DNA of 64,000 bases. Source: a virus (taxonomy: Duplodnaviria > Heunggongvirae > Uroviricota > Caudoviricetes). The stretch lies in the IMG/VR virus record IMGVR_UViG_3300044712_000123; one strand, written 5' to 3'. Positions 2,979 to 63,708 of this stretch are shown one piece after another. Numbering within the stretch: position 1 is the first letter of the stretch; each line of letters begins with the position of its first letter. The notes under the pieces are model-generated. The model saw nothing but the letters and a program-made list of their open reading frames with translations, was not told the DNA's origin and searched no databases. A program made the position numbers and the translations under genes.

Positions 2979-3715
2979 AATTCTATGACGACTTTATTGG
3001 TAATGGCGAAGAAAATGTAGTACTACCATTCACAGGCGGTGATTCCGAAAGACAGTTTTTAGAGAACCAAAAGAGAGTCCGCAAAGATTGGTATTACTTT
3101 GACCATCCTATTTCGTATTCCTACAATGAATATGGACATCGTTCTAAGAATATAAAAGACATTGACTTAGACAACTATGTAATTTTTACAGGATGTAGTC
3201 ACACTGTAGGAGTAGGGTTAGAATTAGAAAAAACGTTCCCCTACTTAGTTTCTCAAAAACTAGGGGTCGATTACTATAATATTGCTATGGCAGCAACTGG
3301 TATCGATGTTCTTGAATACAACTTGCTGACTTGGTTTGCAAAAGTAAAGAAGAAGCCTAAGTATGTATTTATCCAGTGGCCAGATCATAGTAGATTTGCA
3401 TCTTATCGAAAAGACTATGACTTGATGCACGAGGTTGGTAGCTGGTCTACTGATGTACATGATCGCAATTTGATGATTAACGGGGAAGACACTGGGTTAT
3501 TCTATGCTCGAAAAGAACTAGCCAGAAGACTGATAACTCAAACAGTAGACGCGCCCATTCACAGCTATGATTACGGTGGTCAACAACCCTACGGCACCTG
3601 GAATCACAAGCTACGTCACATTGATTGGGCTAGAGATTTATCACACACTGGCATAAAATCACATGCAAAATTTACTGATTTGTTGTGTGAGCACATTCAA
3701 TCGATAAATAGCTGA
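2975..3715 (+). CDS. SGNH/GDSL-family hydrolase, paralog 3
   Basis: TGCSHTVG (block I), TGIDV (block III) and DLSH (DxxH). Overlaps paralog 2 by 4 nt. Confidence 0.55.
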   Translation: MKFYDDFIGNGEENVVLPFTGGDSERQFLENQKRVRKDWYYFDHPISYSYNEYGHRSKNIKDIDLDNYVIFTGCSHTVGVGLELEKTFPYLVSQKLGVDYYNIAMAATGIDVLEYNLLTWFAKVKKKPKYVFIQWPDHSRFASYRKDYDLMHEVGSWSTDVHDRNLMINGEDTGLFYARKELARRLITQTVDAPIHSYDYGGQQPYGTWNHKLRHIDWARDLSHTGIKSHAKFTDLLCEHIQSINS

Positions 3716-4041
3716 TGTTAAGTATAACCGAATCAGCAAAAATCAAGATCGCCGATGTGTTGGCAGAAGAGAATAATCCTGCCATGCGCCTGCGAATGTA
3801 CATTCAGGGTGGAGGATGTTCAGGAATGAGTTATGGATTCACCCTTGATGACCAGAATAACGAAGACGATTTCGAAGTTCCTGCAGGTGATACTACTGTA
3901 TTAATCGATAGCATGAGTATGCAATATGTTGAAAATGCTACAATTGACTTTATCGATGACCTGCAGGGTTCTCGATTCAGCATCACTAATCCACAAGCAC
4001 AAACAACATGCGGATGCGGGAGTTCCTTTAGTCCTTATTGA
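3715..4041 (+). CDS. erpA: A-type iron-sulfur cluster carrier / insertion protein
   Basis: Close to E. coli ErpA/IscA along the whole length (YIQGGGCSGMSYGFTLDD...GSRFSITNPQAQTTCGCGSSF); the three conserved Cys are present. Confidence 0.9.
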   Translation: MLSITESAKIKIADVLAEENNPAMRLRMYIQGGGCSGMSYGFTLDDQNNEDDFEVPAGDTTVLIDSMSMQYVENATIDFIDDLQGSRFSITNPQAQTTCGCGSSFSPY

Positions 4042-4047
4042 TAAATA
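4039..4047 (+). promoter_or_regulatory. TGATAAATA motif, candidate late-type promoter element upstream of the tail-fibre gene
   Basis: Exact TGATAAATA, overlapping the erpA stop and 19 nt before the ATG at 4067. The motif recurs at 14518, 14568, 37598 and 51710. Confidence 0.25.
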
Positions 4048-4066: not shown

Positions 4067-5293
4067 ATGGCGATTTCCGGTCAACAGGTCATTTTAGTTG
4101 GACTACAAAACGAGTCAGCTAACAGTGACTCACTATATGCTGCTTTTAACAAGACAGTAACTAACTTTGCAACATTATTTTCCTGTGCTAGCCCGTACAA
4201 TACTTTTGTGGGCAACTCGGGGATAACAGTAAATACTAGCCCAAGTTCTGGTACAGTGTATATTACTAATACTGGGGTAACCAGTCTGACACCAGGTACG
4301 GGTATTTCATTAAGTAGTAGTAATGGTAATGTTACTATCTCTAGTACCGGTGGCGGCGGAGGTGGAGGTGGTACCGTAACTAGCGTAGGTGTGACAACTG
4401 CGTCATCTAGTAGAATTACAGTTTTAGGTGGACCAATTGTTAGCTCTGGTAATATTCAACTAGATTTGGGTACAACTGGCGTGCTCGCAGGCAGCTATAC
4501 ATATCCTACTATGACAGTAGACTCATATGGTAGAGTGACTAGCATTTCTAGTGCGTCATCGACTGGTACAGTCACTAGTGTAGCAGTTAATCCAGGTACA
4601 GGGATTCAAGTTACAGGTAGTCCAATCACTACTTCAGGTACAATCAATATCACAAACACAGGTGTTACTCGTCTAAATGCCGGAACCGGTATCTCATTGA
4701 GTAGCAGTAACGGTAACATCACGGTATCAACAACGACTACCGGCGGAACTGTTACAAGTGTTGGAGTGTCCAGCACAACGTTAACTGTCTCAAATAGTCC
4801 TATTACAACAACTGGTACGATTACGATTGATTTACCTAGTACAATCAGTGTGTCGGGTAATGTCACTGGGGCAAATATTACGACTGCTGGATTAATTACA
4901 GCTACGGGTAACGTAACCGCAGGTAATTTAATATCACGTGGATCTATTACTTCAAATAATACAGGTGGTGTTGGTTATGCAACCGGAGCAGGTGGCACTG
5001 TAACTCAGATAACATCACGTACAACTGGTGTAACGATAAACAAGATATCTGGGGCAATTACTTTAGTATCAGCCGCAGGTACATCATCGTATACTACATT
5101 CACTGTCACAAACAGCACAGTGGCTGCGACTGACGTTATCATTATCAATCAAAAATCAGGTACTGACAAGTACGAGGCGTGGATCAGTAATGTGGCTGCT
5201 GGTAGCTTTAACGTCACATTTGCGGATACATCAGGTACAACAACTGAACAACCAGTATTCAACTTTGCTGTAATTAAAGCAGTAGCTGCATAA
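4067..5293 (+). CDS. tail-fibre-like structural protein (Gly/Ser/Thr-rich, with an internal duplication)
   Basis: Repeated ITNTGVT..GTGISLSSSNGN.T.S and GTVTSVGV units, a run of eight Gly, a low-complexity beta-rich composition, and an AAGGA ribosome-binding site. Confidence 0.55.
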   Translation: MAISGQQVILVGLQNESANSDSLYAAFNKTVTNFATLFSCASPYNTFVGNSGITVNTSPSSGTVYITNTGVTSLTPGTGISLSSSNGNVTISSTGGGGGGGGTVTSVGVTTASSSRITVLGGPIVSSGNIQLDLGTTGVLAGSYTYPTMTVDSYGRVTSISSASSTGTVTSVAVNPGTGIQVTGSPITTSGTINITNTGVTRLNAGTGISLSSSNGNITVSTTTTGGTVTSVGVSSTTLTVSNSPITTTGTITIDLPSTISVSGNVTGANITTAGLITATGNVTAGNLISRGSITSNNTGGVGYATGAGGTVTQITSRTTGVTINKISGAITLVSAAGTSSYTTFTVTNSTVAATDVIIINQKSGTDKYEAWISNVAAGSFNVTFADTSGTTTEQPVFNFAVIKAVAA

Positions 5294-8640: not shown

Positions 8641-8673
8641 TTTCGAGTCCTTTTCTTTACTGTCTAAGATTCT

Positions 8674-8702
8674 ATTATATGCCCAAAACGATTTATTGTC
8701 AA
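8674..8702 (-). promoter_or_regulatory. consensus sigma70 promoter (TTGACA, 17-nt spacer, TATAAT), cassette copy 1
   Basis: Reverse complement reads TTGACAataaatcgttttgggcaTATAAT. The 34-mer is identical to the one at 25652..25680. Confidence 0.7.
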
Positions 8703-9787: not shown

Positions 9788-10378
9788 TTACGGACGCTTT
9801 GTTACGATCTGGTCGATCAATCCGTATTCCAGTGCTTGTTGTGCTGACATGAATGTGTCACGATCCATATCCTTCTCAAACTCTGCGTAGGTCTTGCCCT
9901 TTGAGTTGTGCTCGACATAGATTTCGGTTAGTCGCTTTTTCAAGAATGTGATTTCTTTGTAACTGATTTCGATATCAGATTGCATACCACGTGCGCCACC
10001 TGAGGGCTGGTGAATCATGTGTCGTGCATTGGGCAACATGAAACGCTTACCAGGAGCACCAGCTTGCGCTAGCAGAGAACCCATTGAACATGCTTGACCC
10101 ATAACGATGGTATGCACATTTGGTTTGATGAATTGCATGGTATCATAGATCGCCATACCAGCAGTAACACTACCACCTGGCGAGTTGATATACATTGAAA
10201 TGTCTTTTTCGGGATCCTCAGATTCGAGGAATAGTAGTTGGGCAACAATCAAGTTTGCCATTTGGTCATGAACTTCACCTTCTAGCAGAATGACACGATC
10301 ACGTAGCAAACGTGAATAGATATCATAGCTACGCTCACCTTTAGCGGTGTGTTCAATGACGATTGGGACTAGAGACAT
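9788..10378 (-). CDS. clpP: ATP-dependent Clp protease proteolytic subunit
   Basis: Full-length ClpP with Ser-His-Asp triad context ([16 protein letters not shown]) and an AAGGAAG ribosome-binding site. Confidence 0.95.
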
Positions 10379-10447: not shown

Positions 10448-12019
10448 TTATTTACGTTTGGCTCGAACGCCCGTTTCTTTAGCTTTACGGGTACTGCTTG
10501 GGTTGATGATATCCTTAGCTGCACCAGCTAGACTACGTGTGCCCATACTGTCAGCACCGTCAAGTGCATCCTGAGCTTCACCGTCATCACCATACATGTC
10601 AATATTATCATCATGTTGGGCAGTGTCTGCTAGTTTGAAACTGAAACCACCTTTTGTTGGGTCAGTAGAACCTGACTTAGATTCCAATGTAACCTTACCG
10701 TCCAACTTAGCTGGCCATTGTGTAGTGAACACGATCTTGCCTGCTTTGTATGTTGCATATTGTTGCATGAAGTTCATGTCCAAGATTTCCAACACGCCAC
10801 CTTGATAGTTAGGGATAGCATCACTGTCGTTAACCATATCAACTACAGCCTTCTTGACAAGATACATCAACTTACCACCGTCACTTGATTCACCTTTGAA
10901 TCCCATGTCAGCCCAAAGTGATGCATACTTTCCTGGTAACTTAGATTCTTCTTTGCGGTTAGCTTTGTACATCATTAAACTTTGATCTGCCATCTTCATT
11001 ACTTTATCAGTCCAAGGCAAGAATTGATTGAACTTCTTAGGGATAGCCTTAGGGTTGTATTTGTGAATGATGTTCATACCTCTGAACGGTTGTTCTTTAG
11101 TAGGAGTAGTCTTAGTCATCTCAATAAATTCAACTAAGGCAGCATATTTCTTGTTCTTTCTGATATGATCTGGAATCTTCAAACCAGTCATACTAGGAGG
11201 CGCACCGCCACCTGTTCCCTTACTAGAGATTTTAACAGTGTGTGATGTTGCAGCATTCTTAACTTCGGCGTAGCTATCAGCTAGCTTCTCATTTTGCTTG
11301 CTCGGGAATCGTAGTACTAGATCACCCAATGAACCACCTAGCCATTCTTCGAATTGCTTTCTCTTGGGGAAGCTAGACTGACCATACAACAATGCAAGAA
11401 CACCCAGGTATTCGCCTGCATTATCAACTAGTGCAGTACGCACGGTTTCGTGGCTTTTGTCTCTATAGTCTTCAGGAAGAATAGCACCTTCACCTGCCAT
11501 AATCTGATAAGCAAGTTGAATAGTAACTTTACCATAATCAGTGCTTTCTAGGACTTGGTTGTGTGTAATCATGTCACCGAAGTCTTCTGCATTAATATCT
11601 TGGTCAGTGATCTTAATCTGAGCAGGATTTAATTTGAAAGCAGCTTTACCTTTAGGTTCTTGTTCGCCCTTTTCACTTGGTTCGCCTGTTGCACTACCGG
11701 CAAGTTGTCCACCAAATTCGCTAGTTTTCAACAGACTACCTAACGGGATTACATCACCATCAGTTGTCTTTAACTCGATAGAACCCTTGAACTGAGTGCC
11801 ACCTGGGCTGTTATGTAGTGCTTGAATTCTTTTAGCTTCTCTAGGATCGATGAAGACTTGAACTCCATCCTTGCTTAGAAAAGGCTTGCTTGTAGCAATG
11901 TGTTGGATGAAACTTTCAAAACGACCTGGTCGTTTTAATAGTACACCGGGGCTTAGGGTCTTAGCAGAAGATTCCGAATCTTCGGCAAGAACAGATAATA
12001 GGTCTAATAAATCACGCAT
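10448..12019 (-). CDS. hypothetical 523-aa protein with N-terminal MRDLLDLLSVLAED; candidate propeptide-tagged virion or injected protein
   Basis: No recognisable catalytic motif. Its N-terminus resembles that of the SOD-like gene at 40007 (MRDLIQLLED). Confidence 0.45.
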   Translation of the reverse strand: MRDLLDLLSVLAEDSESSAKTLSPGVLLKRPGRFESFIQHIATSKPFLSKDGVQVFIDPREAKRIQALHNSPGGTQFKGSIELKTTDGDVIPLGSLLKTSEFGGQLAGSATGEPSEKGEQEPKGKAAFKLNPAQIKITDQDINAEDFGDMITHNQVLESTDYGKVTIQLAYQIMAGEGAILPEDYRDKSHETVRTALVDNAGEYLGVLALLYGQSSFPKRKQFEEWLGGSLGDLVLRFPSKQNEKLADSYAEVKNAATSHTVKISSKGTGGGAPPSMTGLKIPDHIRKNKKYAALVEFIEMTKTTPTKEQPFRGMNIIHKYNPKAIPKKFNQFLPWTDKVMKMADQSLMMYKANRKEESKLPGKYASLWADMGFKGESSDGGKLMYLVKKAVVDMVNDSDAIPNYQGGVLEILDMNFMQQYATYKAGKIVFTTQWPAKLDGKVTLESKSGSTDPTKGGFSFKLADTAQHDDNIDMYGDDGEAQDALDGADSMGTRSLAGAAKDIINPSSTRKAKETGVRAKRK

Positions 12020-12038
12020 AGTCTAGTATTTATGCTTT

Positions 12039-12955: not shown

Positions 12956-13648
12956 ATGCATATAGGTTTTGATGTAATCAGTGATCTTAATCTGTCTCCT
13001 GAAGACAGCTTCAATTGGGAAGGTAAGGCCACTAGCTTGTATTGTGTCATCGCTGGTAATATCAGCAATGACTTGCGAACTGTTAGACAAACGTTATTAC
13101 ACTTGTCTAAGTTATATCAAGGCATCTTTTATATCATCGGAACGTTAGAGTATGAAACAGCTACTGACATACAACAGCGCTCCGATGAAATTTTCAAACT
13201 ATGCGCTACTATCAAAAACGTAGCAGTACTACATCATCATGTAGTCATTATTGATGGCATTGCAGTCGTTGGTGCAAACGGTTGGTATGATGCAAAGCAT
13301 CAACATGCATCTGATTTAGAACTTGAAGGTCACAGACATGAAGACCTCTCATATTTAAAAAGCACACTTGAACGTCTTCAAAGACACTTGGACGTTAAGA
13401 AGATTTTCGTTGTTTCTCATTCTGTTCCAGGACCCGGTTTATACTTCGGTGAAGCTCCTAGTACAACAGAAACACATCTTTCACTAGACCTACTGCTAGG
13501 AGTCGATACTGAAAAGAAGATCACTCACTGGGCGTACGGCACATATGGAAAAGTAGTTGACACCACTATAAATGGCATCAACTACGTTAATAACTCATAC
13601 TACAAACGTAAGCCTTATTGGGCTAAACGTGTAGAAATCTCGATTTAA
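12956..13648 (+). CDS. hypothetical protein, possibly a calcineurin-like phosphoesterase
   Basis: ORF only; weak D/H/GN motifs. It is convergent with clpS and their stops overlap. Confidence 0.35.
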   Translation: MHIGFDVISDLNLSPEDSFNWEGKATSLYCVIAGNISNDLRTVRQTLLHLSKLYQGIFYIIGTLEYETATDIQQRSDEIFKLCATIKNVAVLHHHVVIIDGIAVVGANGWYDAKHQHASDLELEGHRHEDLSYLKSTLERLQRHLDVKKIFVVSHSVPGPGLYFGEAPSTTETHLSLDLLLGVDTEKKITHWAYGTYGKVVDTTINGINYVNNSYYKRKPYWAKRVEISI

Positions 13649-13950
13649 GCCTCTGCTTCTACTCGCACAAGCAATGGGAAGCCCTGATTACGCGCTTCCA
13701 AAGTGACCTCAGTCCCTTTTTGTTCTGCGATCTCGTAGGGCAATACTGCAACTACAGCAGAACCTTCATTATGGATGCTCTCTGTGATATTCATCGCAGT
13801 GTCAGTGTTGTAATTGAAATAGTCGATCAGGCTTCCTACAACAAACTCCATGCTAGTTACATCATCGTTCATGTAAATAATTTTGTACATAGGAGGCTCT
13901 TTAAGAGCAAGATTTGGTTTGATTTTAATTTTTGTTTCAGTTTTAGACAT
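13645..13950 (-). CDS. clpS: ATP-dependent Clp protease adaptor ClpS
   Basis: KEPPMYKIIYMNDDVTSMEFVV...PLL aligns with E. coli ClpS ([22 protein letters not shown]...PLL) across the core domain. Confidence 0.85.
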   Translation of the reverse strand: MSKTETKIKIKPNLALKEPPMYKIIYMNDDVTSMEFVVGSLIDYFNYNTDTAMNITESIHNEGSAVVAVLPYEIAEQKGTEVTLEARNQGFPLLVRVEAEA

Positions 13951-14014: not shown

Positions 14015-14458
14015 TTATTTAGTGTAACTGATAGCAATAGTTTTCGGCTTCTTTTCTTCTGGAACTCTACGTTCCAAATACACAGTTAGAATACCGTCAC
14101 GCTGACTAGCGTTTACAACTTCGACATGTTCGGCAAGTGTGAACTCACGGTCAAAGTCTCGGCTGCTAATACCGCGATGTAGGTACTCATTAGATGCATC
14201 CTCGTCCCGAACAATACGACCCTTGATACTTAATAGACGGTTGTCTAAGTTGATCTCCACTTCACCTTCACGGAAGCCAGCAGTAGCAACTTCAATATAG
14301 AAAGTGTCTTCTGTCTGTTTTACGATATTGTAAGGGGGATAGTTTAGGGATTGTTGAGCATTCATTCGTGCAAGTTCGTCAAACATGTTATCGAAACCGA
14401 TACCAAATTTGTGAATTGACGGAATGTCGAGGGAACGAAGGGTTAAAGTTTTTGTCAT
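14015..14458 (-). CDS. ibpA: small heat-shock protein, alpha-crystallin/Hsp20 family
   Basis: YPPYNI, AGF.E.E..I and LERR.PEEKKP match IbpA/IbpB; an AGGAG ribosome-binding site. Confidence 0.9.
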   Translation of the reverse strand: MTKTLTLRSLDIPSIHKFGIGFDNMFDELARMNAQQSLNYPPYNIVKQTEDTFYIEVATAGFREGEVEINLDNRLLSIKGRIVRDEDASNEYLHRGISSRDFDREFTLAEHVEVVNASQRDGILTVYLERRVPEEKKPKTIAISYTK

Positions 14459-14488
14459 GTTTTTCTCCTATAAGCAAGTAATGACTAT

Positions 14489-14512
14489 GTGAGCCCGACA
14501 GTCGGCACTCAC
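14489..14512 (-). promoter_or_regulatory. imperfect inverted repeat in the ibpA 5' UTR
   Basis: gtgagcccgacagtcggcactcac: GUGAG/CUCAC outer stem with CCGAC/GUCGG inner stem. It lies between the TGATAAATA motif and the ribosome-binding site. Confidence 0.35.
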
Positions 14513-14517
14513 AATGA

Positions 14518-14526
14518 TATTTATCA
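14518..14526 (-). promoter_or_regulatory. TGATAAATA motif, candidate promoter element for ibpA
   Basis: Exact 9-mer, 59 nt upstream of the ibpA ATG. Confidence 0.3.
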
Positions 14527-14567
14527 TATCAAATTACGTAAAATATTTAAATATTTTTCGGTTAAAC

Positions 14568-14576
14568 TGATAAATA
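14568..14576 (+). promoter_or_regulatory. TGATAAATA motif, candidate promoter element for the homing endonuclease
   Basis: Exact 9-mer, 62 nt upstream of the ATG at 14639; divergent from the ibpA copy. Confidence 0.3.
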
Positions 14577-14638
14577 AAAGTGTAGTTCGCGGACTTCGTA
14601 CATCCCAACTACTCTAATGCTTACAAGGAGCAATCAGC

Positions 14639-15130
14639 ATGACTATTTATCTATACGTAAAGACCCACAACAAAACAGGGTTAAAATATCTAGGAAAAAC
14701 TACGGCAAAGGATCCTCATAAGTACAAGGGCTCAGGTACATATTGGATATCACATATCAAAAAGCATGGATATGATGTTAAAACTGAAATTATACAAGAA
14801 TGCCTAAATGTCAATGAAGTTGCTGAGTGGGGGATACATTACAGCAACCTATGGAATATAGTAGATTCATCTGAATGGGCTAATTTAAAACCTGAGTCAG
14901 GCGATGGAGGAAGCCCACCTAGAGATGTTGAAACTAAAATGAAAATTTCTGCTGTGATGAAGGGTAGACCTGCCCACAATAAGGGAAAGAAACAAGTTCA
15001 CAAAAAACACAAAGCTAGAAGTGATCTAAAGGGCAAAGTCAGACCTAAAATAGAATGCCCGCATTGCGGACGACACATAGATGAGGCAAATTATCACCGA
15101 TACCATGGTGATAGATGCAAATCAAAATAG
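14639..15130 (+). CDS. GIY-YIG homing endonuclease (Seg-like) with a C-terminal zinc finger
   Basis: IYLYVKTHNKTGLKYLGKT...YKGSG matches the GIY-YIG motif; C-terminal CPHCGRH...H. It is a lone + strand gene between - strand genes. Confidence 0.6.
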   Translation: MTIYLYVKTHNKTGLKYLGKTTAKDPHKYKGSGTYWISHIKKHGYDVKTEIIQECLNVNEVAEWGIHYSNLWNIVDSSEWANLKPESGDGGSPPRDVETKMKISAVMKGRPAHNKGKKQVHKKHKARSDLKGKVRPKIECPHCGRHIDEANYHRYHGDRCKSK

Positions 15131-15340
15131 CTTCTTAGGAAGACTTTGTTCACGCAAGAATTTCTTCCATCTAGACTTAGCTTTGGATTTCTTTAACTTG
15201 CGTTCAGTGGTAGGCTTAACAAACTGTTGTCTGTCTCTCACTTCTTGGAGAAGATCCATATCGGTTATCTTCTTCTTGAATTTACGTAGGGCTTTCTCTA
15301 CGTTACCATCTGTTACAATTACTCGTCTTCCTTTTTTCAT
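15122..15340 (-). CDS. rpsU: 30S ribosomal protein S21
   Basis: ALRKFKKK...L.EVR.R..F.KPTTERK matches bacterial bS21 (ALRRFKR...LAEVRRREFYEKPTTERK). Its start overlaps the clpX stop as ATGA. Confidence 0.8.
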   Translation of the reverse strand: MKKGRRVIVTDGNVEKALRKFKKKITDMDLLQEVRDRQQFVKPTTERKLKKSKAKSRWKKFLREQSLPKKLF

Positions 15341-16542
15341 ATAAGTTCAATGGGTGTTAAAACTTGCTCCCGACTAATATTTATCTTGGTTACGTTATTT
15401 TCACGATATTTCTTAGTGTTGAACATGTGTGGCATCAATACACGCTCGATTTCAGTGTGTAATCCACGTGCACCGGTCTTCAATTTGATAGTGTTTTCAG
15501 CAAGTTGTTCTAGTGCTTCTTGGTCAAACGTAAGTTCAATCCCGTCTAGACTTAGCAAATACTTATATTGGTCAATATAGTTGTTCTTGACACCGGTCAA
15601 AACTTTAACCAGTTGTTCTTTGGTCAAATTATCAATAGAAACTGAGGTAGTGAATCGGCCAATGAATTCAGGAATCATACCAAATTTAGTCAAGTCATCC
15701 GGTGTGACCAGAGTCAAGTCTCCTTCTCTGTTCTTATCTTTGACTTTGGCACTAAAACCAATACTAGAACCATCTGTACGTTTAGCAATAACGTCTTTCA
15801 ATCCGACGAATGCGCCACCTGCAATGAACAAGATATTCTTGGTGTTAATTTCAATCATGTCTCCTGCAGGATTCTTGCGACCACCTTGGGCAGGGACTCG
15901 ACAGACAGTACCTTCAACCAACTTCAATAACGCTTGTTGAACACCTTCACCTGATACGTCACGTGTGATACTTGTCGATTCTCCTTTACGTGCAATTTTG
16001 TCGATTTCATCAACAAACACAATACCACGTTCTGCAAGTTTGCTATCGCCACCAGCAGCATTCAACAGCATACTAATCATTGATTCAACGTCATCACCCA
16101 CATAACCAGCTTCGGTCAAGCTAGTGGCATCCGTGACTACGAACGGAACATTCAAATACTTTGCTACACTTTTAGCAAGCAATGTCTTACCTGAACCAGT
16201 TGGTCCTATGATTAGCACGTTACCTTTAGAGATTTCTAGGTCTTTGGGAGGATTGTTGATTCGCTTGTAGTGATTAGCAATAGCTACGCTCAATACTTTC
16301 TTTGCGCTATCTTGCCCAATAACATGTAAATCCAGATATTCTTTGATAGATGATGGGTCAAAACGTTCATCATTCTTTTGAACCACTTCCTCTACGGAAG
16401 TTTCGTCAGTGAGCAACTGACCGCATAGTTCGATACAATCGCTACAAATAGCAACATCTTCACCTACGATTAATTTTTTTACCAGATCCTTGTGGTTACC
16501 GCAAAATGAGCAGTGAGTTAGTGTTTTTGATTCAGTGGTCAT
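15337..16542 (-). CDS. clpX: ATP-dependent Clp protease ATP-binding subunit ClpX
   Basis: N-terminal zinc-binding CSFCG...CSDCIELC, Walker A GPTGSGKT, sensor motifs and a 401-aa length. Confidence 0.95.
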   Translation of the reverse strand: MTTESKTLTHCSFCGNHKDLVKKLIVGEDVAICSDCIELCGQLLTDETSVEEVVQKNDERFDPSSIKEYLDLHVIGQDSAKKVLSVAIANHYKRINNPPKDLEISKGNVLIIGPTGSGKTLLAKSVAKYLNVPFVVTDATSLTEAGYVGDDVESMISMLLNAAGGDSKLAERGIVFVDEIDKIARKGESTSITRDVSGEGVQQALLKLVEGTVCRVPAQGGRKNPAGDMIEINTKNILFIAGGAFVGLKDVIAKRTDGSSIGFSAKVKDKNREGDLTLVTPDDLTKFGMIPEFIGRFTTSVSIDNLTKEQLVKVLTGVKNNYIDQYKYLLSLDGIELTFDQEALEQLAENTIKLKTGARGLHTEIERVLMPHMFNTKKYRENNVTKINISREQVLTPIELI

Positions 16543-18249: not shown

Positions 18250-19815
18250 TCAACCTTTTTGTGCTTTCAAATATTCTTCAATCTCAAGTTTTTCAGTTTC
18301 GGACAACAACTCTACATCATACTGCCCATTCTCGATATTATCTACTAGGTACTTGATGTATTCCTGATTGTGTAGATAAGAATCCGATTGTTCCTTGTTA
18401 ACCTCGATCCATTTGGAACTGTCAAATTTGTATACACGATTTGGTAATGCATCAACACGAACAAACACATCACCCTTTGAAGCATAATCTGGGAACTTAG
18501 TGCCAAAGTTAGTGCTGATATTTCTTACTGAGTCAGCAGTCAATCTAAAGAGTTCAGGATGCAATCCTTGCAATGCATCTTTGTGCATCAACGCACCGTT
18601 GTAAGTGACATACCCACCTTCAACTTCATTGATTGGATCTTCTTTAGTAACGTTCTCGGTTATGATTGGAGCTTCTACTTTTGGTTCTGGTTTGTATACC
18701 ATCGGAGTAGTATCTTTAAAGTGATCGAATCCTGCTAGTAAGTATGGGTGTTGTTCAAAGATAGACTTTTCTTCTTTGACTTCTACCACTGGTTCTTCTA
18801 CTTGAGTTTCGTCATAGTCTAACGGGTGCTCACCTAAGTCCACGAACTTAACGGGCTCTTTGGGTAGTATAACTTCTGGAACTTCTTTTTCAATCTCGTC
18901 AATTAGTTTGTTACCTTCATCAATATCAGGGAACAACTCTGACTTAGTGATTACTTCACCTACAGGTTCTTCTTTGATTACTTCACGTAATTTTTCTAAC
19001 GCTTCTTCGTTAATAGGCCCGTCATCAGGTTCATATGCAGGTTCTTCATCGTCCCAATCTTTACTCTGGTTGGCAGCTAATACAAGTGCAATAGCAAGCG
19101 GATCAAATACAGCAACAAGCAAGATAATAACCCAACGAACAGCGGCTTCTAGCATGTTCTCGTCAGCATTGTCACCGTAAATCAATGCGGCGATATATTT
19201 TATTGGTCCTACTTCTGCCTCGACTTTACGTACCTCTGCGGCCAGGGGCGCTCTCTCCTCAGATAACTGACTAATCGTTTTCTGTTCGGCTTGGATTTCT
19301 GCAATAATACGTGCTCGTTCTTTTTGTTGACTTTTACGGACTGCAACTGCTTTATCAGCACCCGTTTCTGATGTACTTCTGCCCATGATCTGGTCCACAG
19401 ATTCATCCATCTGTTTAAGTACTTTACGGTTCGCATCAATGTTGTCCTTCGCTGTTTTAATTTTTTCGTCAAAAATAGATACTTTCGCTACTGCGTCACC
19501 TGACACTACACCTTGATCCATGTGTGCCTTTGACAAGAAGCCAAAGATACCCATACTTGTTAGCATTGCTAATGCAACTACTGCCGGAACAAGATATAGT
19601 TTAATAAGCCAACCAGCACGATGCCAGTATTTGCGTAGCCAAACTGTTGTAGTGATCTTCCCCACTTCGAGGATTGAACCCATGATAATAACTGGAATAA
19701 CCGCACCGGCAAAGATAGCAGTTAGACCAATGATACTATAGTAGGCTGCTACTGAGCTAAGTGACAGTGCTACTAATAGAGTGAGATTAGAAAAGGATAG
19801 AAATTTTAAGCGCAT
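18250..19815 (-). CDS. membrane protein with N-terminal transmembrane helices, a central coiled-coil, an acidic linker and a C-terminal globular domain
   Basis: Composition only; several hydrophobic helices and a Gln/Glu/Lys-rich heptad region. Confidence 0.45.
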   Translation of the reverse strand: MRLKFLSFSNLTLLVALSLSSVAAYYSIIGLTAIFAGAVIPVIIMGSILEVGKITTTVWLRKYWHRAGWLIKLYLVPAVVALAMLTSMGIFGFLSKAHMDQGVVSGDAVAKVSIFDEKIKTAKDNIDANRKVLKQMDESVDQIMGRSTSETGADKAVAVRKSQQKERARIIAEIQAEQKTISQLSEERAPLAAEVRKVEAEVGPIKYIAALIYGDNADENMLEAAVRWVIILLVAVFDPLAIALVLAANQSKDWDDEEPAYEPDDGPINEEALEKLREVIKEEPVGEVITKSELFPDIDEGNKLIDEIEKEVPEVILPKEPVKFVDLGEHPLDYDETQVEEPVVEVKEEKSIFEQHPYLLAGFDHFKDTTPMVYKPEPKVEAPIITENVTKEDPINEVEGGYVTYNGALMHKDALQGLHPELFRLTADSVRNISTNFGTKFPDYASKGDVFVRVDALPNRVYKFDSSKWIEVNKEQSDSYLHNQEYIKYLVDNIENGQYDVELLSETEKLEIEEYLKAQKG

Positions 19816-19853
19816 TAGAATATTTATGTGTTTTTGTTCTCCGTAGAGTAATA

Positions 19854-25102: not shown

Positions 25103-25135
25103 TTTTGACTCCTTGTCTTAACTGTCTATGTATGT

Positions 25136-25164
25136 ATTATATACCCAAACTGATTTATTGTCAA
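25136..25164 (-). promoter_or_regulatory. consensus sigma70 promoter, cassette copy 3
   Basis: Reverse complement reads TTGACAataaatcagtttgggtaTATAAT. Confidence 0.7.
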
Positions 25165-27179: not shown

Positions 27180-27239
27180 GTTTTTCTCCTGTGTGTGTTT
27201 AAGTGTTGAGTTTTTAAGTAGAACTCTAACTACTTTTAT

Positions 27240-27464
27240 TTATGCCTTAGTATAGCACGTTTCACGATATTTTTGTAGAGCTTGGACTCTAATCTCTTCT
27301 AACCTCTTTGTGATACGTTCTGGCAATTCAGTATCATCATCCCAAAGATTTTTTAGTTTGACTAGTTTCGGTCTATCGAAACCACGATGAAGGTCTAACT
27401 CTTCACCGTAGTCATCATCGCTATCGTCTATATTACTTTGCTGGTTTGGCTTCTGGCTTAGCAA
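27240..27464 (-). CDS. hypothetical acidic protein
   Basis: ORF on the track. Confidence 0.3.
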   Translation of the reverse strand: MLSQKPNQQSNIDDSDDDYGEELDLHRGFDRPKLVKLKNLWDDDTELPERITKRLEEIRVQALQKYRETCYTKA

Positions 27465-28668: not shown

Positions 28669-29165
28669 CGACTATTTATCACAGCTTTTGCTTCGGCTTC
28701 AGTTTTAAACGGACCTTGATAGTCATATCGCTGGATAAAGATATATTTAGGACAGAATTCTACGGTCGCCTCAGTTCCTTGGTTCATTACATACCACCCT
28801 GCGGCATAGTAACATTTGCTTTTCAATGTCTTTGTGTACAAGTGAATCTTGCGTTTGATATCCAAGATTGAATTGAAGACTTTACTGGTCGTAGGATACT
28901 CGTTGAACGGTGCTTCGTGCTTTGGTTTCTCTTTGGTAAGTGGTTGAAACTCGATATGAGTTTGCTTTTTGATAGCAGTGGTATTTTTAAAATGAGCAAC
29001 GCCACCGTTGAGCTTCACTTCGAATCCAGACCCATCAGCGATAACGTTACCGACTTTTTCGTTTCCGTCCGTTACTATCCAGAACTGATTCTTTACTACG
29101 GGTTTTGCTATTAGTGTTTTTGTCATTTGTTTCCTCTTCGTCAAAAGATTTGAGTCTTTTAACAT
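28665..29165 (-). CDS. hypothetical protein
   Basis: ORF on the track. Confidence 0.4.
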   Translation of the reverse strand: MLKDSNLLTKRKQMTKTLIAKPVVKNQFWIVTDGNEKVGNVIADGSGFEVKLNGGVAHFKNTTAIKKQTHIEFQPLTKEKPKHEAPFNEYPTTSKVFNSILDIKRKIHLYTKTLKSKCYYAAGWYVMNQGTEATVEFCPKYIFIQRYDYQGPFKTEAEAKAVINSR

Positions 29166-34368: not shown

Positions 34369-34391
34369 GTGTGTCCTTAAGTAGTCGTATA

Positions 34392-34420
34392 ATTATACGA
34401 CTACTTGGGTTTATTGTCAA
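34392..34420 (-). promoter_or_regulatory. consensus sigma70 promoter (TTGACA, 17-nt spacer, TATAAT)
   Basis: Reverse complement reads TTGACAataaacccaagtagtcgTATAAT. Confidence 0.7.
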
Positions 34421-36044: not shown

Positions 36045-36106
36045 AATTTTTCCTTTCTGTAATAAAATTTAGGCTGTGCAAAGAATATTATTCAATGCAC
36101 AACCTT

Positions 36107-36135
36107 ATTATACGACAGAAACGATTAATTGTCAA
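36107..36135 (-). promoter_or_regulatory. consensus sigma70 promoter (TTGACA, 17-nt spacer, TATAAT)
   Basis: Reverse complement reads TTGACAattaatcgtttctgtcgTATAAT. Confidence 0.7.
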
Positions 36136-37597: not shown

Positions 37598-37606
37598 TGA
37601 TAAATA
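37598..37606 (+). promoter_or_regulatory. TGATAAATA motif, candidate promoter element for the + strand island
   Basis: Exact 9-mer, 54 nt upstream of ATG 37661. Confidence 0.3.
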
Positions 37607-37660: not shown

Positions 37661-38227
37661 ATGAGAATCAATGAATTTATCAATGAGGGCAAAAAACCCG
37701 GTTTATGGGCAAACATTCACGCTAAACAAAACCGCATTAAAAACGGTTCCGGTGAGAAGATGCGTAAGCCAGGAAGTAAGGGCGCGCCTTCTGCACAAGA
37801 TTTCAAAGATGCAGCAAATGAAGCAGCCAATCCAGCACAACAAGCTGCCATTGCTATTAGCAAAAAAGAGCAAGATGTCTCAGAAGACTGGCAAAAGGTC
37901 AACAAAAAGGACAAAACTGACGGTATGAGCAAGAAGGCTGTCAAAGCCTATCGCCGTGAGAATCCAGGTTCTAAACTAAAGACCGCTGTCACAACTAAGC
38001 CTTCAAAATTAAAGAAGGGCTCTAAGAGTGCAAAACGCCGTAAGAGTTTCTGCGCACGTATGAGTGGAATGAAAAAGGCTCATGCAAGTGCTAAGACTAA
38101 ACGAGATCCGGATAGCCCAATCAACAAAGCATTGCGCCGTTGGAACTGCGAATCAGTAGAACAACTACAAGAATTGGTAATGATCGCCGAACAATATATA
38201 GCAACAAAAAAGAAAGAATTGAAATGA
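37661..38227 (+). CDS. basic Lys-rich protein with N-terminal MRINEFINE; candidate propeptide-tagged virion protein
   Basis: Start reassigned to the internal ATG 37661. The MRxNEF(I/L)xE N-terminus is shared with 40557, 41414 and 62914. Confidence 0.45.
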   Translation: MRINEFINEGKKPGLWANIHAKQNRIKNGSGEKMRKPGSKGAPSAQDFKDAANEAANPAQQAAIAISKKEQDVSEDWQKVNKKDKTDGMSKKAVKAYRRENPGSKLKTAVTTKPSKLKKGSKSAKRRKSFCARMSGMKKAHASAKTKRDPDSPINKALRRWNCESVEQLQELVMIAEQYIATKKKELK

Positions 38228-40005
38228 ACTTCAAAGAACTATACGAAGGCGCAACGCCAAAACTACCCGGAGCGTTTAATGGCGTTCAAGTAATGACACC
38301 TCAGCAATTTGTTGCTAAAGCAGGTGATATGGCAGGTGAAGAAGTTGATGAAGGGTATCCCAAACATCAAGACTTGAGTGGTGTCAGTACTGACAAACTC
38401 AAAGCATATCTTGCTAAACAAAGTCAGCAATCAGTGCCGGGTGAAGGTAGTCAGGTCAAGCGTGTACAAGCTGAATTACAGCGTAGAAGTCAAGGTGTGG
38501 AGGAAGGCATCGGCGATACTATTAAGCGCGGAGTCAAGAGCGTCAAGCGTGGTATGCAGGGTTGGGGGCAGTTAAATGATGTGCCGGACGATGACCCAAG
38601 ATTGTTACCTGGGGCTAAAGATACACCAAGACAATTAGTGGCACGTAACAAAGGCTATGATGACAAAACTGTAAAGCAATTAGCTCGTCCTGTTAAATCA
38701 AGTTTCCCGTTCGGTGGTGATGATACTACAAGTCCGCATAGCCCAAGAGGATTGCAAAAGCGTGTATTAGATCGTGAAATGAAAAAACGCGGACTGGATG
38801 AGCAAGGTGTATCTGAAGGTGAAGAACACCTAGCAAGAATTCGTAAACTATCTGGCTTAGAAGAAGCAACTAAACTGCCAGCACAAAGTCGTGACTTAGG
38901 TGGCCAAGAGTTTCAAGACTACATGAAACGTATTCAAGGTACTCCTGACGTAGACAAAGCTGGTAACGTTAAAGTAGACAAGAAGGGCAACGAGAAGTAT
39001 GTCACTGGTAAAACAAAGACAGACAAGTACAAGATGCCCTATATCCATCGTTCAAGTGTTATCACATACTTGAGTCCTGATGGCAAGACTTACAGTGAAG
39101 ATGCTATTAAAAAGACGCTAGCAATTCGTCCTAAAGCATTGTTAAAGCAGAACGAAAAGATGAAGCATTCTAACGGAGAGTTTGAACAATTCTTCAACGT
39201 TGGTTTCGCAGCATTGACGGGAATTGCATTAGACGAACAAACTAACAACCTAATCATTGTAAACACATGCCCAGGCGCTGGTTCATGTAAAGTTGATTGC
39301 TTCGCTATGAAGGGCGGTAAGGTTCAGTTTAAGAATGCTTGGCAAAGTGATGGCCGTATCTTAACATATCTATTGAATGATCCAGATGGCTTCTTCAATC
39401 AACTAAGTGCAGAGATTACAAAAGAATCTGAAGCAGGTAAAAAGGGTGATAAGAAGTTCCCTGGTGGTTGGAATGTAACAGTTCGCTGGCATGATGCTGG
39501 TGATTTCTTTAGTCCAGAATATCTAGACTTAGCATTGAAGATGGCTGCAAAGCATCCTGATGTTAAGTTCTATGCTTACACAAAGATGGCTGGTGCTGCA
39601 TTAGCTAAGAAGCCAGACAACTTTATCATCAACTGGTCAGAAGGCGCAAGCTCAAGTCAAGAGAAACAAGTTAAAGCACAAGATCCTAACTTAGAACAAA
39701 CTAAGAATAGTCGTATCGTTCCTGAGAAGTTATTCTATGACTTGTTAGCTAAAGACGAGAAGGGTAACTTAGCTAAAGGACCTGCTGGTCAATGGCAACC
39801 TGCTAGCCCAGAAGCATTGAAGCAAATGAAACAGCGTATTGCACAAGCATACAACATCAGCCCATCAAGTATCTTGTCATATGACGAATATACAAGCAAG
39901 CCTAAAGTCGCTGGTATGAAGTACAACGTTATTGTAGCTCCAGGTGAAGGTGATATCAGTGCTAACGATCCTAACGTACTAAGCACATTGTTGTTGAGAC
40001 ACTAA
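38224..40005 (+). CDS. hypothetical 594-aa protein with N-terminal MNFKELYEG
   Basis: ATG overlaps the upstream stop as ATGA. No catalytic motif recognised beyond a CPGAGSCKVDC Cys cluster. Confidence 0.45.
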   Translation: MNFKELYEGATPKLPGAFNGVQVMTPQQFVAKAGDMAGEEVDEGYPKHQDLSGVSTDKLKAYLAKQSQQSVPGEGSQVKRVQAELQRRSQGVEEGIGDTIKRGVKSVKRGMQGWGQLNDVPDDDPRLLPGAKDTPRQLVARNKGYDDKTVKQLARPVKSSFPFGGDDTTSPHSPRGLQKRVLDREMKKRGLDEQGVSEGEEHLARIRKLSGLEEATKLPAQSRDLGGQEFQDYMKRIQGTPDVDKAGNVKVDKKGNEKYVTGKTKTDKYKMPYIHRSSVITYLSPDGKTYSEDAIKKTLAIRPKALLKQNEKMKHSNGEFEQFFNVGFAALTGIALDEQTNNLIIVNTCPGAGSCKVDCFAMKGGKVQFKNAWQSDGRILTYLLNDPDGFFNQLSAEITKESEAGKKGDKKFPGGWNVTVRWHDAGDFFSPEYLDLALKMAAKHPDVKFYAYTKMAGAALAKKPDNFIINWSEGASSSQEKQVKAQDPNLEQTKNSRIVPEKLFYDLLAKDEKGNLAKGPAGQWQPASPEALKQMKQRIAQAYNISPSSILSYDEYTSKPKVAGMKYNVIVAPGEGDISANDPNVLSTLLLRH

Positions 40006-40006
40006 G

Positions 40007-45344: not shown

Positions 45345-45550
45345 TCTTCAACTCCGAAATGTTCTTTAATTCTTCTACTGACAAATGCATTAGGGTCATT
45401 AAACCCTGCAACATCAGCGCATTCTTTTACGATCAACTCAGCAAACTTTTCTAAGCTGAATACATGGGTATGTAATCCAGTTTGTCCCGGCATATGAACC
45501 ATCGACTGTTCTGCGATGTTTTCAAATACTTCACGCATCATGTTCCCCAT
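45341..45550 (-). CDS. EHFGVEE-family small protein (copy 3)
   Basis: LEKFAELIVKECADVA...IKEHFGVEE. Confidence 0.5.
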   Translation of the reverse strand: MGNMMREVFENIAEQSMVHMPGQTGLHTHVFSLEKFAELIVKECADVAGFNDPNAFVSRRIKEHFGVEE

Positions 45551-51650: not shown

Positions 51651-51709
51651 GATAACCTTCCTTTGTGATGGTTTTATTTTGACATTGTGCTACCGTTGTG
51701 TAGCACAAG

Positions 51710-51718
51710 TATTTATCA
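51710..51718 (-). promoter_or_regulatory. TGATAAATA motif, candidate promoter element for folE
   Basis: Exact 9-mer, 59 nt upstream of the folE ATG; it overlaps the groES stop. Confidence 0.3.
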
Positions 51719-59873: not shown

Positions 59874-62582
59874 TTAACCGAATGTGAACAAATCGTCAAA
59901 TGTTGACTTGACATCGATGTTACTCTTAATGTCCCAATCAAGAACACCAAGCAAGTTATCGACCTTTTCATCAACCAATGTAGATTCCATTGCTTCGTTG
60001 TCGAATGGCAATTCTTTGAACCATTGAGGTAAGCGAAGTTCATCAACTGGGTACGCAATACTAGTGAAGTCTAACGGGTTAGGCTTTAGCTTGCAAACGA
60101 TAATCTTCATACCGTCAGTGATTGACATTGAATAGTTATCGCCGTGTAGTCTGCGCAAATAGTTCCAGTTGATAGCGGCTCTAGCATGACCAACGCCACA
60201 CTTACCAGTCTTCTCAAAAGCAATCGTGTGTTTAGTCAAGTTGTTCACTGACTTAGGACTACCTTTAGTCCAGGGATCCTGAGCAACCATAACACGCTTG
60301 AACTCTTTCACCCGTTCAATGATATCATCACGCAGTTTACCACGTTGTAGAACCATTTCAAGAACGTCCATCAAGAACTCTTGCACGTATTTAGGAGTAT
60401 CAGCACGTTTCAAGTCAAGACCCATAGCTTTGATATCACCCAAAGCTCCGTCTTTGTCTTTACGCTTGCCCTCTTTATCAAAGATGTTGATAGCATAACG
60501 CTTCTTAGTGATAAAGATACTACGATCACCAATCAATTCACGACCAGCTTTGATAATCTCACCATTCTTACGAGGTGCATGAAATGCACGTTCCATGAAT
60601 GCAGGGAAACTATCGTTTGCTTGTTCAGCAATACCATCATACAACCCGATACACAGGTCTTTGTTCCACTCTAGTTCACCACTATCAACCTGAGGCTTCA
60701 ATGTTGGGAACGCAGTGAAGTAACATGAGTCAGTATCACCATAAACAATAGCGTTACCTTCGTGTGTGTACTTGCCTTCAACTACTTCGTTGATTTGGCT
60801 CATCATGTGTTTAACAATCTGACGACCACTCAGTGTAACTGATTGACCAATACGCTTGTCATAGAAACGGCAATGCTCGTTCAACAGTGCGCCGTATGCA
60901 GAGTTAAGCAAAATCTTACGAACAAGCTGACGCTTATCGTAGTATTCATACATATCAGTGCCATACGCAGCCTTCGCTTGCTTCTGTAAGTCTTTACGTT
61001 CTGAGTACCAACGAGTTAGTAGACCGGGAATTACACCCTCTTTCTCATAAGTAAAGATTGTACCATTCGCACTTAGAATCCAAGGCTTGTGACTGTCAAA
61101 GATCATCTTCCAGATTTCAGCCGCTGACATTTCTTCACTGCGACCATCTTCAAAGTCAACGGTGAGAATAGTGCCACGTTCTTGGTTCATGATTGCCGTA
61201 TACTCTAAAGCACCAAACAAACCTTCCCATAGAATTGCACCAGTCACATCATCGTCACCGTCTTTGTAGTACTTCTTTTCTCGGGCTAACTTTGCGCCCT
61301 TCTCTTTCATGTACTGATCGGTGAGCGTTTGTCTGACTTGGGCAACGATTGTTTCTGGTGCCATGTTGAGGGCGCGAATAGCCGAGGGATAGAGCGAGTT
61401 AATGTCAACTGCTCCGACCCATTCGTGCAAACCTCGTTTCGGCGTAGCAACATAGGCACCTGCTGCTTGTTGGACTTCATCATCATTGATACTCTTTCGT
61501 TTTTTATCGGGAACAACCAAACCTCTTTCATGCGCTTCGTTGTAGATTGCCATTTCAATCATCGCAACAGAGCCCATAACAGTAGGCAGCAAAACTGTAT
61601 TCTCATGTGCTAGCGCATTCGCTAGTTCTAAGAATTTGAGTTTGTTGTGGATCTTAACCAACAACATCGTATCCTGTCTGTTGTATTCAATAAACTTTTT
61701 AAAGTCTTTGTTATACAACTGATCGAGAGTACCTTCGTAAACGGTCTTATTCTCTCCTACTTCCATCTCACCAATAGCATCCAACTTGTACGAGTGACGA
61801 GACTCATAGTTGTATTTCTTGTAGAGTTGCAAATAGTCAAGGTGAATGCGACCGATCAAGTCGTAAGTCATTTCTTTCTTACCGAATCGTTCATACTCAC
61901 GTGGCTTGGGCAATTGACCCAACAGACAGAACTTACGTGTATCATCTTTCGACATAACACGTGTAACACGATTGACCATGTATGGAATATCATAGCCTTC
62001 TGAGTTCCAACCAGTCAATACATCTGCGTCTTCAATTAACTGAAAGAAAACATCGAACATGTCCTTCTCATTCGTGAACAACATTGTGTTCTCAAACTCT
62101 GCTACAATTTCAGCCGCTGTTTCAGGCGTCATATGCTTTGGTGCAATGACAAGAGTGATACACTGATCTAGCCAATCTAAGTAGCAACTGATAGCTGTTA
62201 CTGGATTGAAAGGATCAGAGGTAGGACTGAAACCTTTGACAGGATCAAAGTCTACTTCAATGTCGAAGAAGCACGTGTGTAGTTTAGGAGGTTCAACCCC
62301 TAAGTAGTTATCAGCTAGACAACGAAACACAACAGGTACATCTGATTCAAACAATTTCTTGCCTGAGTGAATTCTTTTTTCTTTTTCGAATTCTGTACGC
62401 TTGCGTGTGCTGAAACGACTTACTGGTTCGTTGAAGATACTACGTTGCTTACCTCTAGCATCTGGGTAGTATAGAACGTAGTTTGCAGGATACTCTTTGT
62501 ATTCACGCTTACCCTCAGGTGAACGTTCTACTACGTAGATCCGATCTTCATCCCTGCTGTGAATAGCATCAACGTATGACAT
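59874..62582 (-). CDS. family B DNA polymerase (T4 gp43-like)
   Basis: 902 aa with Exo I FFDIEVD, Pol A DINSLYPSAI and Pol C YGDTDSCYF. Confidence 0.95.
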   Translation of the reverse strand: MSYVDAIHSRDEDRIYVVERSPEGKREYKEYPANYVLYYPDARGKQRSIFNEPVSRFSTRKRTEFEKEKRIHSGKKLFESDVPVVFRCLADNYLGVEPPKLHTCFFDIEVDFDPVKGFSPTSDPFNPVTAISCYLDWLDQCITLVIAPKHMTPETAAEIVAEFENTMLFTNEKDMFDVFFQLIEDADVLTGWNSEGYDIPYMVNRVTRVMSKDDTRKFCLLGQLPKPREYERFGKKEMTYDLIGRIHLDYLQLYKKYNYESRHSYKLDAIGEMEVGENKTVYEGTLDQLYNKDFKKFIEYNRQDTMLLVKIHNKLKFLELANALAHENTVLLPTVMGSVAMIEMAIYNEAHERGLVVPDKKRKSINDDEVQQAAGAYVATPKRGLHEWVGAVDINSLYPSAIRALNMAPETIVAQVRQTLTDQYMKEKGAKLAREKKYYKDGDDDVTGAILWEGLFGALEYTAIMNQERGTILTVDFEDGRSEEMSAAEIWKMIFDSHKPWILSANGTIFTYEKEGVIPGLLTRWYSERKDLQKQAKAAYGTDMYEYYDKRQLVRKILLNSAYGALLNEHCRFYDKRIGQSVTLSGRQIVKHMMSQINEVVEGKYTHEGNAIVYGDTDSCYFTAFPTLKPQVDSGELEWNKDLCIGLYDGIAEQANDSFPAFMERAFHAPRKNGEIIKAGRELIGDRSIFITKKRYAINIFDKEGKRKDKDGALGDIKAMGLDLKRADTPKYVQEFLMDVLEMVLQRGKLRDDIIERVKEFKRVMVAQDPWTKGSPKSVNNLTKHTIAFEKTGKCGVGHARAAINWNYLRRLHGDNYSMSITDGMKIIVCKLKPNPLDFTSIAYPVDELRLPQWFKELPFDNEAMESTLVDEKVDNLLGVLDWDIKSNIDVKSTFDDLFTFG

Positions 62583-62842
62583 TAAAGAGTCTTACCTACA
62601 GTTTCCAAGATAGTATTGAGTTCTTCATTTTCGGCGTTAGTCTGTCCTAGACTTGCCTTGTGGGCAACACGAATTGCCTTTTTGAGAACAGAAGGTTTGA
62701 CTTCCAATTCTTCTGCGATAGCCTTGATCGTATCAGTCAAACCACCATTCAATGTATCAATCTCATGCATGACACCCATGCCTTCGTTGATAAGTTGTGT
62801 TAGTTTAATCTTTTGATCGCCGCTGAAAATCTTTGCTGACAT
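62582..62842 (-). CDS. hypothetical protein
   Basis: ORF with an AAGGAGAAAC ribosome-binding site; it overlaps the polymerase start. Confidence 0.4.
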   Translation of the reverse strand: MSAKIFSGDQKIKLTQLINEGMGVMHEIDTLNGGLTDTIKAIAEELEVKPSVLKKAIRVAHKASLGQTNAENEELNTILETVGKTL

Positions 62843-63594: not shown

Positions 63595-63708
63595 ATAGTA
63601 TTTATCTCCCGGTTACTTTATCCGGGGCACACTACGCGGTGCAGTTCAATTGCGCGGACGCCTGAGCTTACGCTCTACCGTTACATCAACGGGCCCTAAG
63701 GTGGGTTC

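Follow-up and report, generated by a model that had tools for sequence, protein, structure and literature searches.

The window analysed here, the whole 64-kb stretch of DNA, encodes a family B DNA polymerase of the T4 type that is 43–49% identical to the polymerases of Sinorhizobium phage Phosso, Agrobacterium phage Atu_ph07, Klebsiella phage RaK2 and Pectobacterium phage CBB, all of which are T4-superfamily jumbo myoviruses. Judging from its sequence, the window is part of a distant T4-superfamily jumbo phage. A megablast search with 10 kb of the window against GenBank phages returned no match. IMG/VR holds at least 600 contigs with a related polymerase (tblastn E ≤ 1e-3); the best 80 of these at least 600 relatives are 83–92% identical, some of them on contigs of 350–364 kb, and an identical (100%) polymerase is found on a 360,240-bp JGI contig. 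The relatives used for comparison throughout are freshwater IMG/VR sequences, hundreds in all. One of the contigs, IMGVR_UViG_3300027749_002876 (loci L208 and L225; 524 kb), carries two diverged ClpX genes about 400 kb apart in opposite orientation, and probably represents two related genomes joined in assembly, not one genome.

Gene content was assigned from PHROG and Pfam scans of all predicted proteins in the window. These include, besides the T4-type family B DNA polymerase, DNA ligase, ClpP, ClpX, ClpS, Hsp20, GroES, IF1 and S21, and further FolE, QueD, QueE and a TGT/DpdA-like protein, with few other recognisable genes and no capsid or tail core genes in the window. The set formed by IF1 (2140–2355), ClpP (9788–10378), ClpS (13645–13950), S21 (15122–15340), ClpX (15337–16542) and GroES (51716–52009) is unusually rich in translation and proteostasis genes. 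On the (−) strand, QueE-like (45538–46380), QueD-like (47767–48270) and FolE (50970–51650) genes, together with that of a 518-aa protein (56520–58076), resemble a 7-deazaguanine DNA-modification gene set; the 518-aa protein is presumed to be TGT/DpdA-like from a reading of its sequence, not from a database match. A (+) strand island at 37661–42991 encodes proteins that begin MRINEFINE, MRANEFLNE and MRATEFITE, and the product of 62914–63594 (−) begins MRYKEFISE. These MRxxEFIxE N-termini resemble that of T4 internal protein I (MKTFKEF) and, in the light of the T4 capsid-targeting sequences, suggest that the island and 62914–63594 proteins are packaged in the virion and expressed late. The first island gene differs among relatives and always begins M-[KR]-x-x-[EQ]-[FILV]; with promoter and leader conserved ahead of it, this variation points to an exchangeable cassette of proteins targeted to the capsid. 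At 52012–52206 (−) lies the gene of a small, histone-like protein rich in Ala and Lys, and its homologues (~65% identical) lie directly downstream of gp46 in gp55-bearing freshwater contigs.

Six exact copies of the 9-mer TGATAAATA occur in the window, against 1.21 expected from dinucleotide-preserving shuffles, and only one of 100 shuffles reached six. The expectation agrees with the original prediction, which had reckoned with about one chance copy and had proposed shuffling as a check on enrichment. That prediction had also listed five of the copies correctly, at 4039(+), 14518(−), 14568(+), 37598(+) and 51710(−); its total was one short, as a sixth copy at 28673(−) had been missed. The box that it described is real, but its extent as a 9-mer does not hold: the box proper is seven bases long, ATAAATA, and is preferably preceded by G or C. 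ATAAATA occurs 16 times in the window and the preceding base is G or C in 16/16, which suggests selection against A or T just before the core in this genome; the hsp20 sites of relatives do carry A at this position, unlike the 16 copies of the window. The T4 box TATAAATA has no copy in the window against 3.2 expected, and AATAAATA has no copy anywhere in it. Placement, statistically stronger evidence than the mere number of copies, was judged against a null in which 5.6% of oriented positions fall no more than 65 nt upstream of a same-strand start. All six copies of TGATAAATA lie within 65 nt 5′ of a same-strand start (P = 3e-8; the farthest at 62 nt), as do 12 of the 16 copies of ATAAATA (P = 1.5e-12). 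Enrichment, placement and orientation are directly observed.

Four of the exact copies stand 54–62 nt before a gene, at the distances originally given: the box at 14518..14526 (−) is 59 nt 5′ of the hsp20 (ibpA-like) start at 14458, that at 14568..14576 (+) is 62 nt 5′ of a GIY-YIG endonuclease gene (14639–15130), that at 37598..37606 (+) is 54 nt 5′ of the first gene of the (+) strand island, and that at 51710..51718 (−) is 59 nt 5′ of folE. The copy at 4039..4047 (+) precedes by 19 nt, again as predicted, the gene at 4067–5293, whose product is a repeat-rich, tail-fibre-like protein. Two copies overlap the TGA stop of the upstream gene, as had been noticed: the 4039 box that of the IscA-like gene (stop at 4039–4041) and the folE box that of groES (stop at 51716–51718). 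A scan for relatives of the 2975–3715 gene, intended to check the conservation of the 4039 box, found no match. The sixth copy, at 28673..28681 (−), falls within the final codons of the gene upstream, and 4 nt separate its core from the ATG (28668) of a 65-aa gene. The box GCATAAATA at 27235..27243 (−) lies 57 nt 5′ of the 26898–27179 gene and is followed by a hairpin (AAGTAG...CTACTT); because this site keeps the same layout, the leading TG of the 9-mer is not required. Other copies of ATAAATA lie very close to start codons, at 63599..63605 (−), 4 nt before the ATG of 62914–63594; at 19821..19827 (−), 5 nt before that of 18250–19815; at 12027..12033 (−), 7 nt before that of 10448–12019; and at 3704..3710 (+), 4 nt before that of the IscA-like gene (3715–4041). 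The copy at 15378..15384 (−), within the end of clpX, is 37 nt before the S21-like gene (15122–15340).

The box is one of at least three promoter-like classes in the intergenic regions of the window, the other two being a sigma-70-like TTGAC...TATAAT arrangement (9726, 10379, 31474, 59810 and 62843) and CAATAAATC-N11-TATAAT. The latter is found upstream of four genes, at 8641–8698, 25103–25160, 34369–34416 and 36045–36131, all on the (−) strand, and possibly represents a middle-type promoter whose upstream box is specific to the phage.

Orthologous sites in relatives separate the box from its surroundings. At folE, similarity between the window and some 20 relatives sets in precisely at the box and continues into folE, and on the 5′ side these relatives have at least five different, unrelated genes; ATAAATA is invariant, and the two bases ahead of it are TG, TA, AG or GC. 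Some 60 relatives carry (T/A/C)GATAAATA ahead of the divergent (+) strand island, and relatives without the divergent gene or island have no box. A TATAAT at 37608 was considered as the true island promoter and rejected, since it is not conserved in relatives whereas ATAAATA is. At hsp20, ATAAATA is invariant in 36 distinct upstream sequences (35 relatives and the window), and the bases before the core are mostly TA, AA or GA in relatives, not TG; in relatives where hsp20 directly follows a co-directional gene, the downstream hairpin is kept and the box is absent. The GIY-YIG cassette is homologous to unrelated phage contigs from position 14568 onwards, precisely where the box has its first base. 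The GIY-YIG gene (14568–15130, +) is an antisense insertion between S21 and hsp20 that most relatives do not have. At the 28668 gene, more than 25 distinct relatives preserve both the core and its distance of 4 nt, with neighbouring codons varying, and orthologues of 62914–63594 retain the core at 4–5 nt from the ATG. The invariance of the box beside unrelated upstream DNA is a direct observation, and the comparisons at folE, the island, hsp20 and the GIY-YIG gene show the box as the apparent 5′ boundary of independently mobile expression units, with selection seemingly acting on the DNA 7-mer ATAAATA itself.

The same picture holds across 2.0 Mb of related loci, which contain 358 distinct ATAAATA contexts. 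Intergenic enrichment, another check that had been proposed, is clear: 164 of the 358 contexts are intergenic, and intergenic DNA makes up 8% of the sequence. Among start-proximal copies, the core is preceded by G in 52%, C in 28% and T in 9%. The roughly five bases after the box are AT-rich and nearly C-free in these copies (positions +2 to +6: C 1–13%, G low), compared with 18–21% C in other copies. Position weights upstream of the box are nearly flat, with no conserved −35 element.

Downstream of the box, covarying stem-loops begin 2–7 nt 3′ of it, and this leader structure too is observed directly. The folE leader contains a nine-pair stem-loop (51685..51708, −) that starts 2 nt after the box, and in relatives it sets in 2–4 nt 3′ of the box. 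Paired cells make up 96%, both sides have changed in five of the nine pairs, and the covariation score was reached by 0/500 shuffles, with slid controls collapsing. The hsp20 5′ leader (14453..14514, −) starts 4 nt after the box and consists of a covarying stem-loop followed by CTTGCTT...AGGAG; its two-tier hairpin begins 4–7 nt after the box and has 11 pairs, eight of them with compensatory changes. At gathering thresholds Rfam recognises no family in the window. Below them, the full length of the hsp20 leader can be aligned with the whole ROSE_3 model (RF02523; E = 0.0054, 24.1 bits, below the gathering score of 43), matching both its hairpin I (GAUGCCGA...UCGGGUC) and its UUGCU...AGGAG Shine–Dalgarno hairpin. 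This likeness concerns the hsp20 leader, not the box, and at 24 bits stays below the gathering score of 43; going by sequence and predicted pairing, the leader is ROSE-like and thermometer-like, and would be a phage-borne heat-shock thermometer. Reading the hairpins as terminators of the upstream genes was rejected, as there is no U-tract on the sense strand and, in the folE comparison, the hairpin travels with the downstream gene. A stem-loop that begins 2–7 nt downstream, ROSE-like at hsp20, places the motif at the 5′ edge of a transcription unit.

The distance from box to ATG falls into three classes in related loci, 4–8, 15–24 and 50–65 nt. The spacing of 54–62 nt that had first drawn attention to the motif was measured correctly and is just one of the three; it is a trait of long structured leaders and not a property of the promoter. 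In the shortest class an ATG follows the core at exactly 4 nt in 67 of 354 contexts (51 by a next-ATG distance count), and GTG and TTG stand at this offset in one context each of the 354. This class spans more than 15 unrelated gene families, including internal-protein-like genes and the 28668 gene; its members are the copies at 3704, 12027, 19821, 28673 and 63599 in the window, and those of relatives among loci L003–L162. No Shine–Dalgarno sequence was found in the class of ATAAATA 4–8 nt before ATG, and copies at 4–8 nt from ATG are absent from CBB, from the 50-kb late region of T4 and from the gp55-linked sister loci.

In T4, late transcription depends on the sigma factor gp55, the co-activator gp33 and the sliding clamp gp45, and homologues of these had been suggested as a check. 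The search found none of the three in the window, and it is by inference that we link the box to gp55 in this genome. Queried with T4 gp55 and CBB_244, tblastn detected no gp55 in the 64-kb window, nor within 10 kb of polymerase, endonuclease and ClpX in ~240 related loci. All the cultured relatives checked have a gp55-like sigma, and the gp55-like family has more than 3000 representatives in metagenomes by profile search (at least 8000 proteins). IMG/VR scans returned hundreds of freshwater gp55 loci, many from the same samples as the clade, and none on a contig known to carry the clade's polymerase, ClpX or endonuclease. The freshwater gp55 contigs have a CBB-like order, with baseplate genes and then, divergently, gp55-gp47-gp46; the baseplate gene has ATAAATA ~21 nt ahead of it, and gp55 is preceded by a sigma-70-like promoter. 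A 1220-aa protein and a conserved stretch of 480 nt were considered as synteny links of gp55 loci with polymerase loci and were both rejected, as the regions are mosaic and not syntenic. The stretch of ~480 nt (L065 2827–3351; 69–79% identical in L345, L352, L382 and L390) is shared by the region upstream of polymerase and the region downstream of gp55, and in L063 and L065 it falls in the N-terminal part of the mosaic 1220-aa protein.

Neither gp45 nor gp33 was identified in the window. A 243-aa protein of the CBB_265 family, encoded downstream of polymerase with a 2OG-Fe oxygenase gene in between, was considered as a clamp candidate; it gave no PDB or Pfam match, its hhalign probability to T4 gp45 is 6%, and its single-sequence AlphaFold model is of low confidence (pLDDT 35). 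Next to the polymerase, an 86-aa protein (62582..62842, −), the one related match in the window, is weakly T4 DsbA-like: it matches phrog_639, 'transcriptional regulator', with E = 2.4e-8, and Pfam Phage_DsbA with E = 8e-4 and 20 bits, below the cut-off of 25. DsbA of T4 is an accessory DNA-binding protein of late transcription.

We consider it probable that ATAAATA is the −10-like box of late promoters, most likely read with a gp55-type sigma and without a −35 element. In the mechanism that we propose, host RNA polymerase carrying a phage gp55-type sigma, which would be encoded elsewhere in the roughly 360-kb genome, reads the box and would start transcription ~5–6 nt downstream of it, with no need for a −35 element. 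The conserved leader hairpins, which set in 2–7 nt 3′ of the box, indirectly favour such a start. Boxes at 50–65 nt from the ATG would then give an mRNA that begins at a stable 5′ stem-loop, at hsp20 a ROSE-like thermometer; boxes at 15–24 nt would give short, T4-like Shine–Dalgarno leaders; and boxes at 4–8 nt would possibly give leaderless mRNAs. The promoter role of the box, the factor that reads it, its late timing and its start site are what we infer from the sequence evidence. A late role fits the presence of the box ahead of internal-protein-like genes and the tail-fibre-like gene and, in gp55-linked relatives, a baseplate-like gene. Against it, the downstream genes folE, hsp20, IscA-like and GIY-YIG are not classic late genes. 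Against a T4-type reading, T is disfavoured (9%) at the equivalent of T4 position −13, and TATAAATA is absent from the window. The dominant 4-nt spacing also counts against the late-promoter reading, as it would need a start one base nearer the box than T4 numbering gives. If gp55-type late promoters are indeed placed for a start on the A of the ATG (ATAAATA-N4-ATG), late mRNAs may be leaderless on a wide scale, a tentative proposal towards which we lean slightly less than against.

The main competing explanation on the DNA level is that the box is a host sigma-70 element, an extended −10 (TGn + TAAATA, or GATAAA) used early or throughout infection, and we regard it as improbable. TG-A-TAAATA does have the TGn format of an extended −10, two weak matches (9/12) overlap the hsp20 copy, and the hsp20 box of many relatives lies within TATAATAAATA, which holds a perfect TATAAT. 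However, the TG is unconserved, with TA, AA, AG, GC and GA occurring in relatives, and TAAATA is without the key −7 T. No sigma-70 site is found at folE and the 9/12 matches at hsp20 are at the level of shuffles; the DNA that would hold the −35 is unrelated between relatives at folE; and clear TTGAC...TATAAT promoters form a separate class in the window. Where a TATAAT does stand beside a box in the window, at the island, it is unconserved and ATAAATA is conserved. The motif could instead act on the RNA, either as an RNase E-type AU-rich processing site before a protective stem-loop or, in the 4-nt class, as a signal for Shine–Dalgarno-independent initiation or coupling. It is always sense-oriented with stem-loops after it, its tight 4-nt spacing to ATG (67/354) ties it to the start codon, and primer-extension 5′ ends cannot tell initiation from processing, as a review of T4 transcription points out (PMC2988020). 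The hsp20 hairpins that occur without the motif after a co-directional gene likewise suit an action on the RNA. But the copies at 14568(+) and 37598(+) have no upstream same-strand gene to supply a precursor RNA, and since same-strand transcription is lacking upstream of them, these divergent units need a promoter of their own. The motif is also lost where the divergent gene is missing (at the island, in relatives), and the same core stands before structural genes of CBB and T4, where it is a DNA promoter. Overall an RNA-level role is unlikely; it fails for these two divergent units and is less improbable for co-directional contexts and for the 4-nt class.

Least credible are the readings that the copies arose by chance, in AT-rich intergenic DNA or from TGA stops and TAA-rich spacers, or that the reverse complement TATTTAT serves as the T-tract of an antisense terminator; we hold these to be highly improbable. 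One shuffle in 100 did produce six copies and two copies overlap TGA stops, and at folE the opposite strand of hairpin and motif scores as terminator-like. Against this stand the placement statistics (P = 1e-8 to 1e-12) and a core that hundreds of relatives keep base for base next to varying neighbours; the divergent flanks speak against very recent common ancestry at every site. For an antisense terminator there are no opposite-strand genes to end at folE, and no T-run follows the hairpins on the sense strand. As a probable late-type promoter, ATAAATA extends to a new and abundant clade a promoter type that is predicted for related jumbo phages, and it provides a usable model, S-ATAAATA without −35, for very abundant uncultured freshwater phages of ~350 kb. 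The model allows transcription units to be drawn and cassette borders to be recognised (internal-protein island, GIY-YIG, folE and hsp20), and it indicates that host-like genes, namely hsp20 with its thermometer-like leader and folE of the 7-deazaguanine pathway, bear the phage's own late-type signal. The box is otherwise an ordinary finding, and nothing but the 4–8 nt class might surprise a specialist. The copies 4 nt before ATG yield a concrete prediction that can be put to the test, namely leaderless late mRNAs in a phage of the T4 superfamily; if true, T4-type late transcription would be coupled to Shine–Dalgarno-independent translation, in which the phage's own IF1 and S21 may take part.

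The likeness to the T4 late promoter that the original prediction proposed, and with it a phage-specific promoter class, is supported by the invariant core beside unrelated upstream flanks. The further points of likeness are the lack of a conserved −35, the AT-rich and C-poor DNA downstream, the leader structures that begin 2–7 nt 3′ of the box, and membership of a T4-superfamily jumbo lineage in which ATAAATA and a gp55-like sigma had already been predicted. The T4 late promoter has TATAAATA between −13 and −6, no −35, and AT-rich DNA on the 3′ side (PMC2988020); seven of the eight bases of TATAAATA are common to the box described here, which likewise has no −35 and AT-rich DNA downstream. 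In T4, too, the box stands ahead of virion and homing-endonuclease genes; for segB and segE it lies 22 and 28 nt upstream. T4 differs in having T (or A) at −13, with A at 9 of its 50 sites, and Aeh1 shows variants at −13 and −12 (PMC2988020); the equivalent base here is G or C and rarely T. In the 50-kb late region of T4, the distance from box to ATG is mostly 12–35 nt and never below 12; compared with T4, the present clade adds the 50–65 nt class with 5′ stem-loops and the 4–8 nt class.

The closest cultured lineage is that of the RaK2-like jumbo phages CBB and GAP32 (polymerase ~43% identical), in which the identical 7-mer, ATAAATA, was predicted in silico as a late promoter at 35 sites before structural genes (PMC5259590, Buttimer et al. 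2017). The gp55-like sigma of CBB is CBB_244, and gp33 and gp45 were undetected there (PMC5259590). On re-examination of CBB, we found ATAAATA 25–49 nt before 11 genes of the structural module, including that of the major capsid protein. CBB differs in showing no G/C preference before the core, in always having a Shine–Dalgarno sequence and in having no 4–8 nt class, and the present clade is an uncultured freshwater group, unlike the cultured CBB and GAP32. The sigma-70 extended −10 (TGnTATAAT) resembles the box through the TGn prefix of the six exact 9-mers and an AT-rich hexamer; it differs in that the TG is unconserved in relatives, the hexamer is without the −7 T and a separate sigma-70-like class exists in the window. 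In T4-like cyanophages (S-PM2, Syn9) the late promoter is NATAAATA (PMC2984593), which has the same variable first base and invariant ATAAATA and lies upstream of homologues of T4 late genes, although these phages differ from the present one in lineage and hosts. Overlapping early and late promoters have been proposed to replace the middle mode in cyanophages (PMC2984593), and by analogy a similar overlap of early and late promoters could explain the box before folE-type genes.
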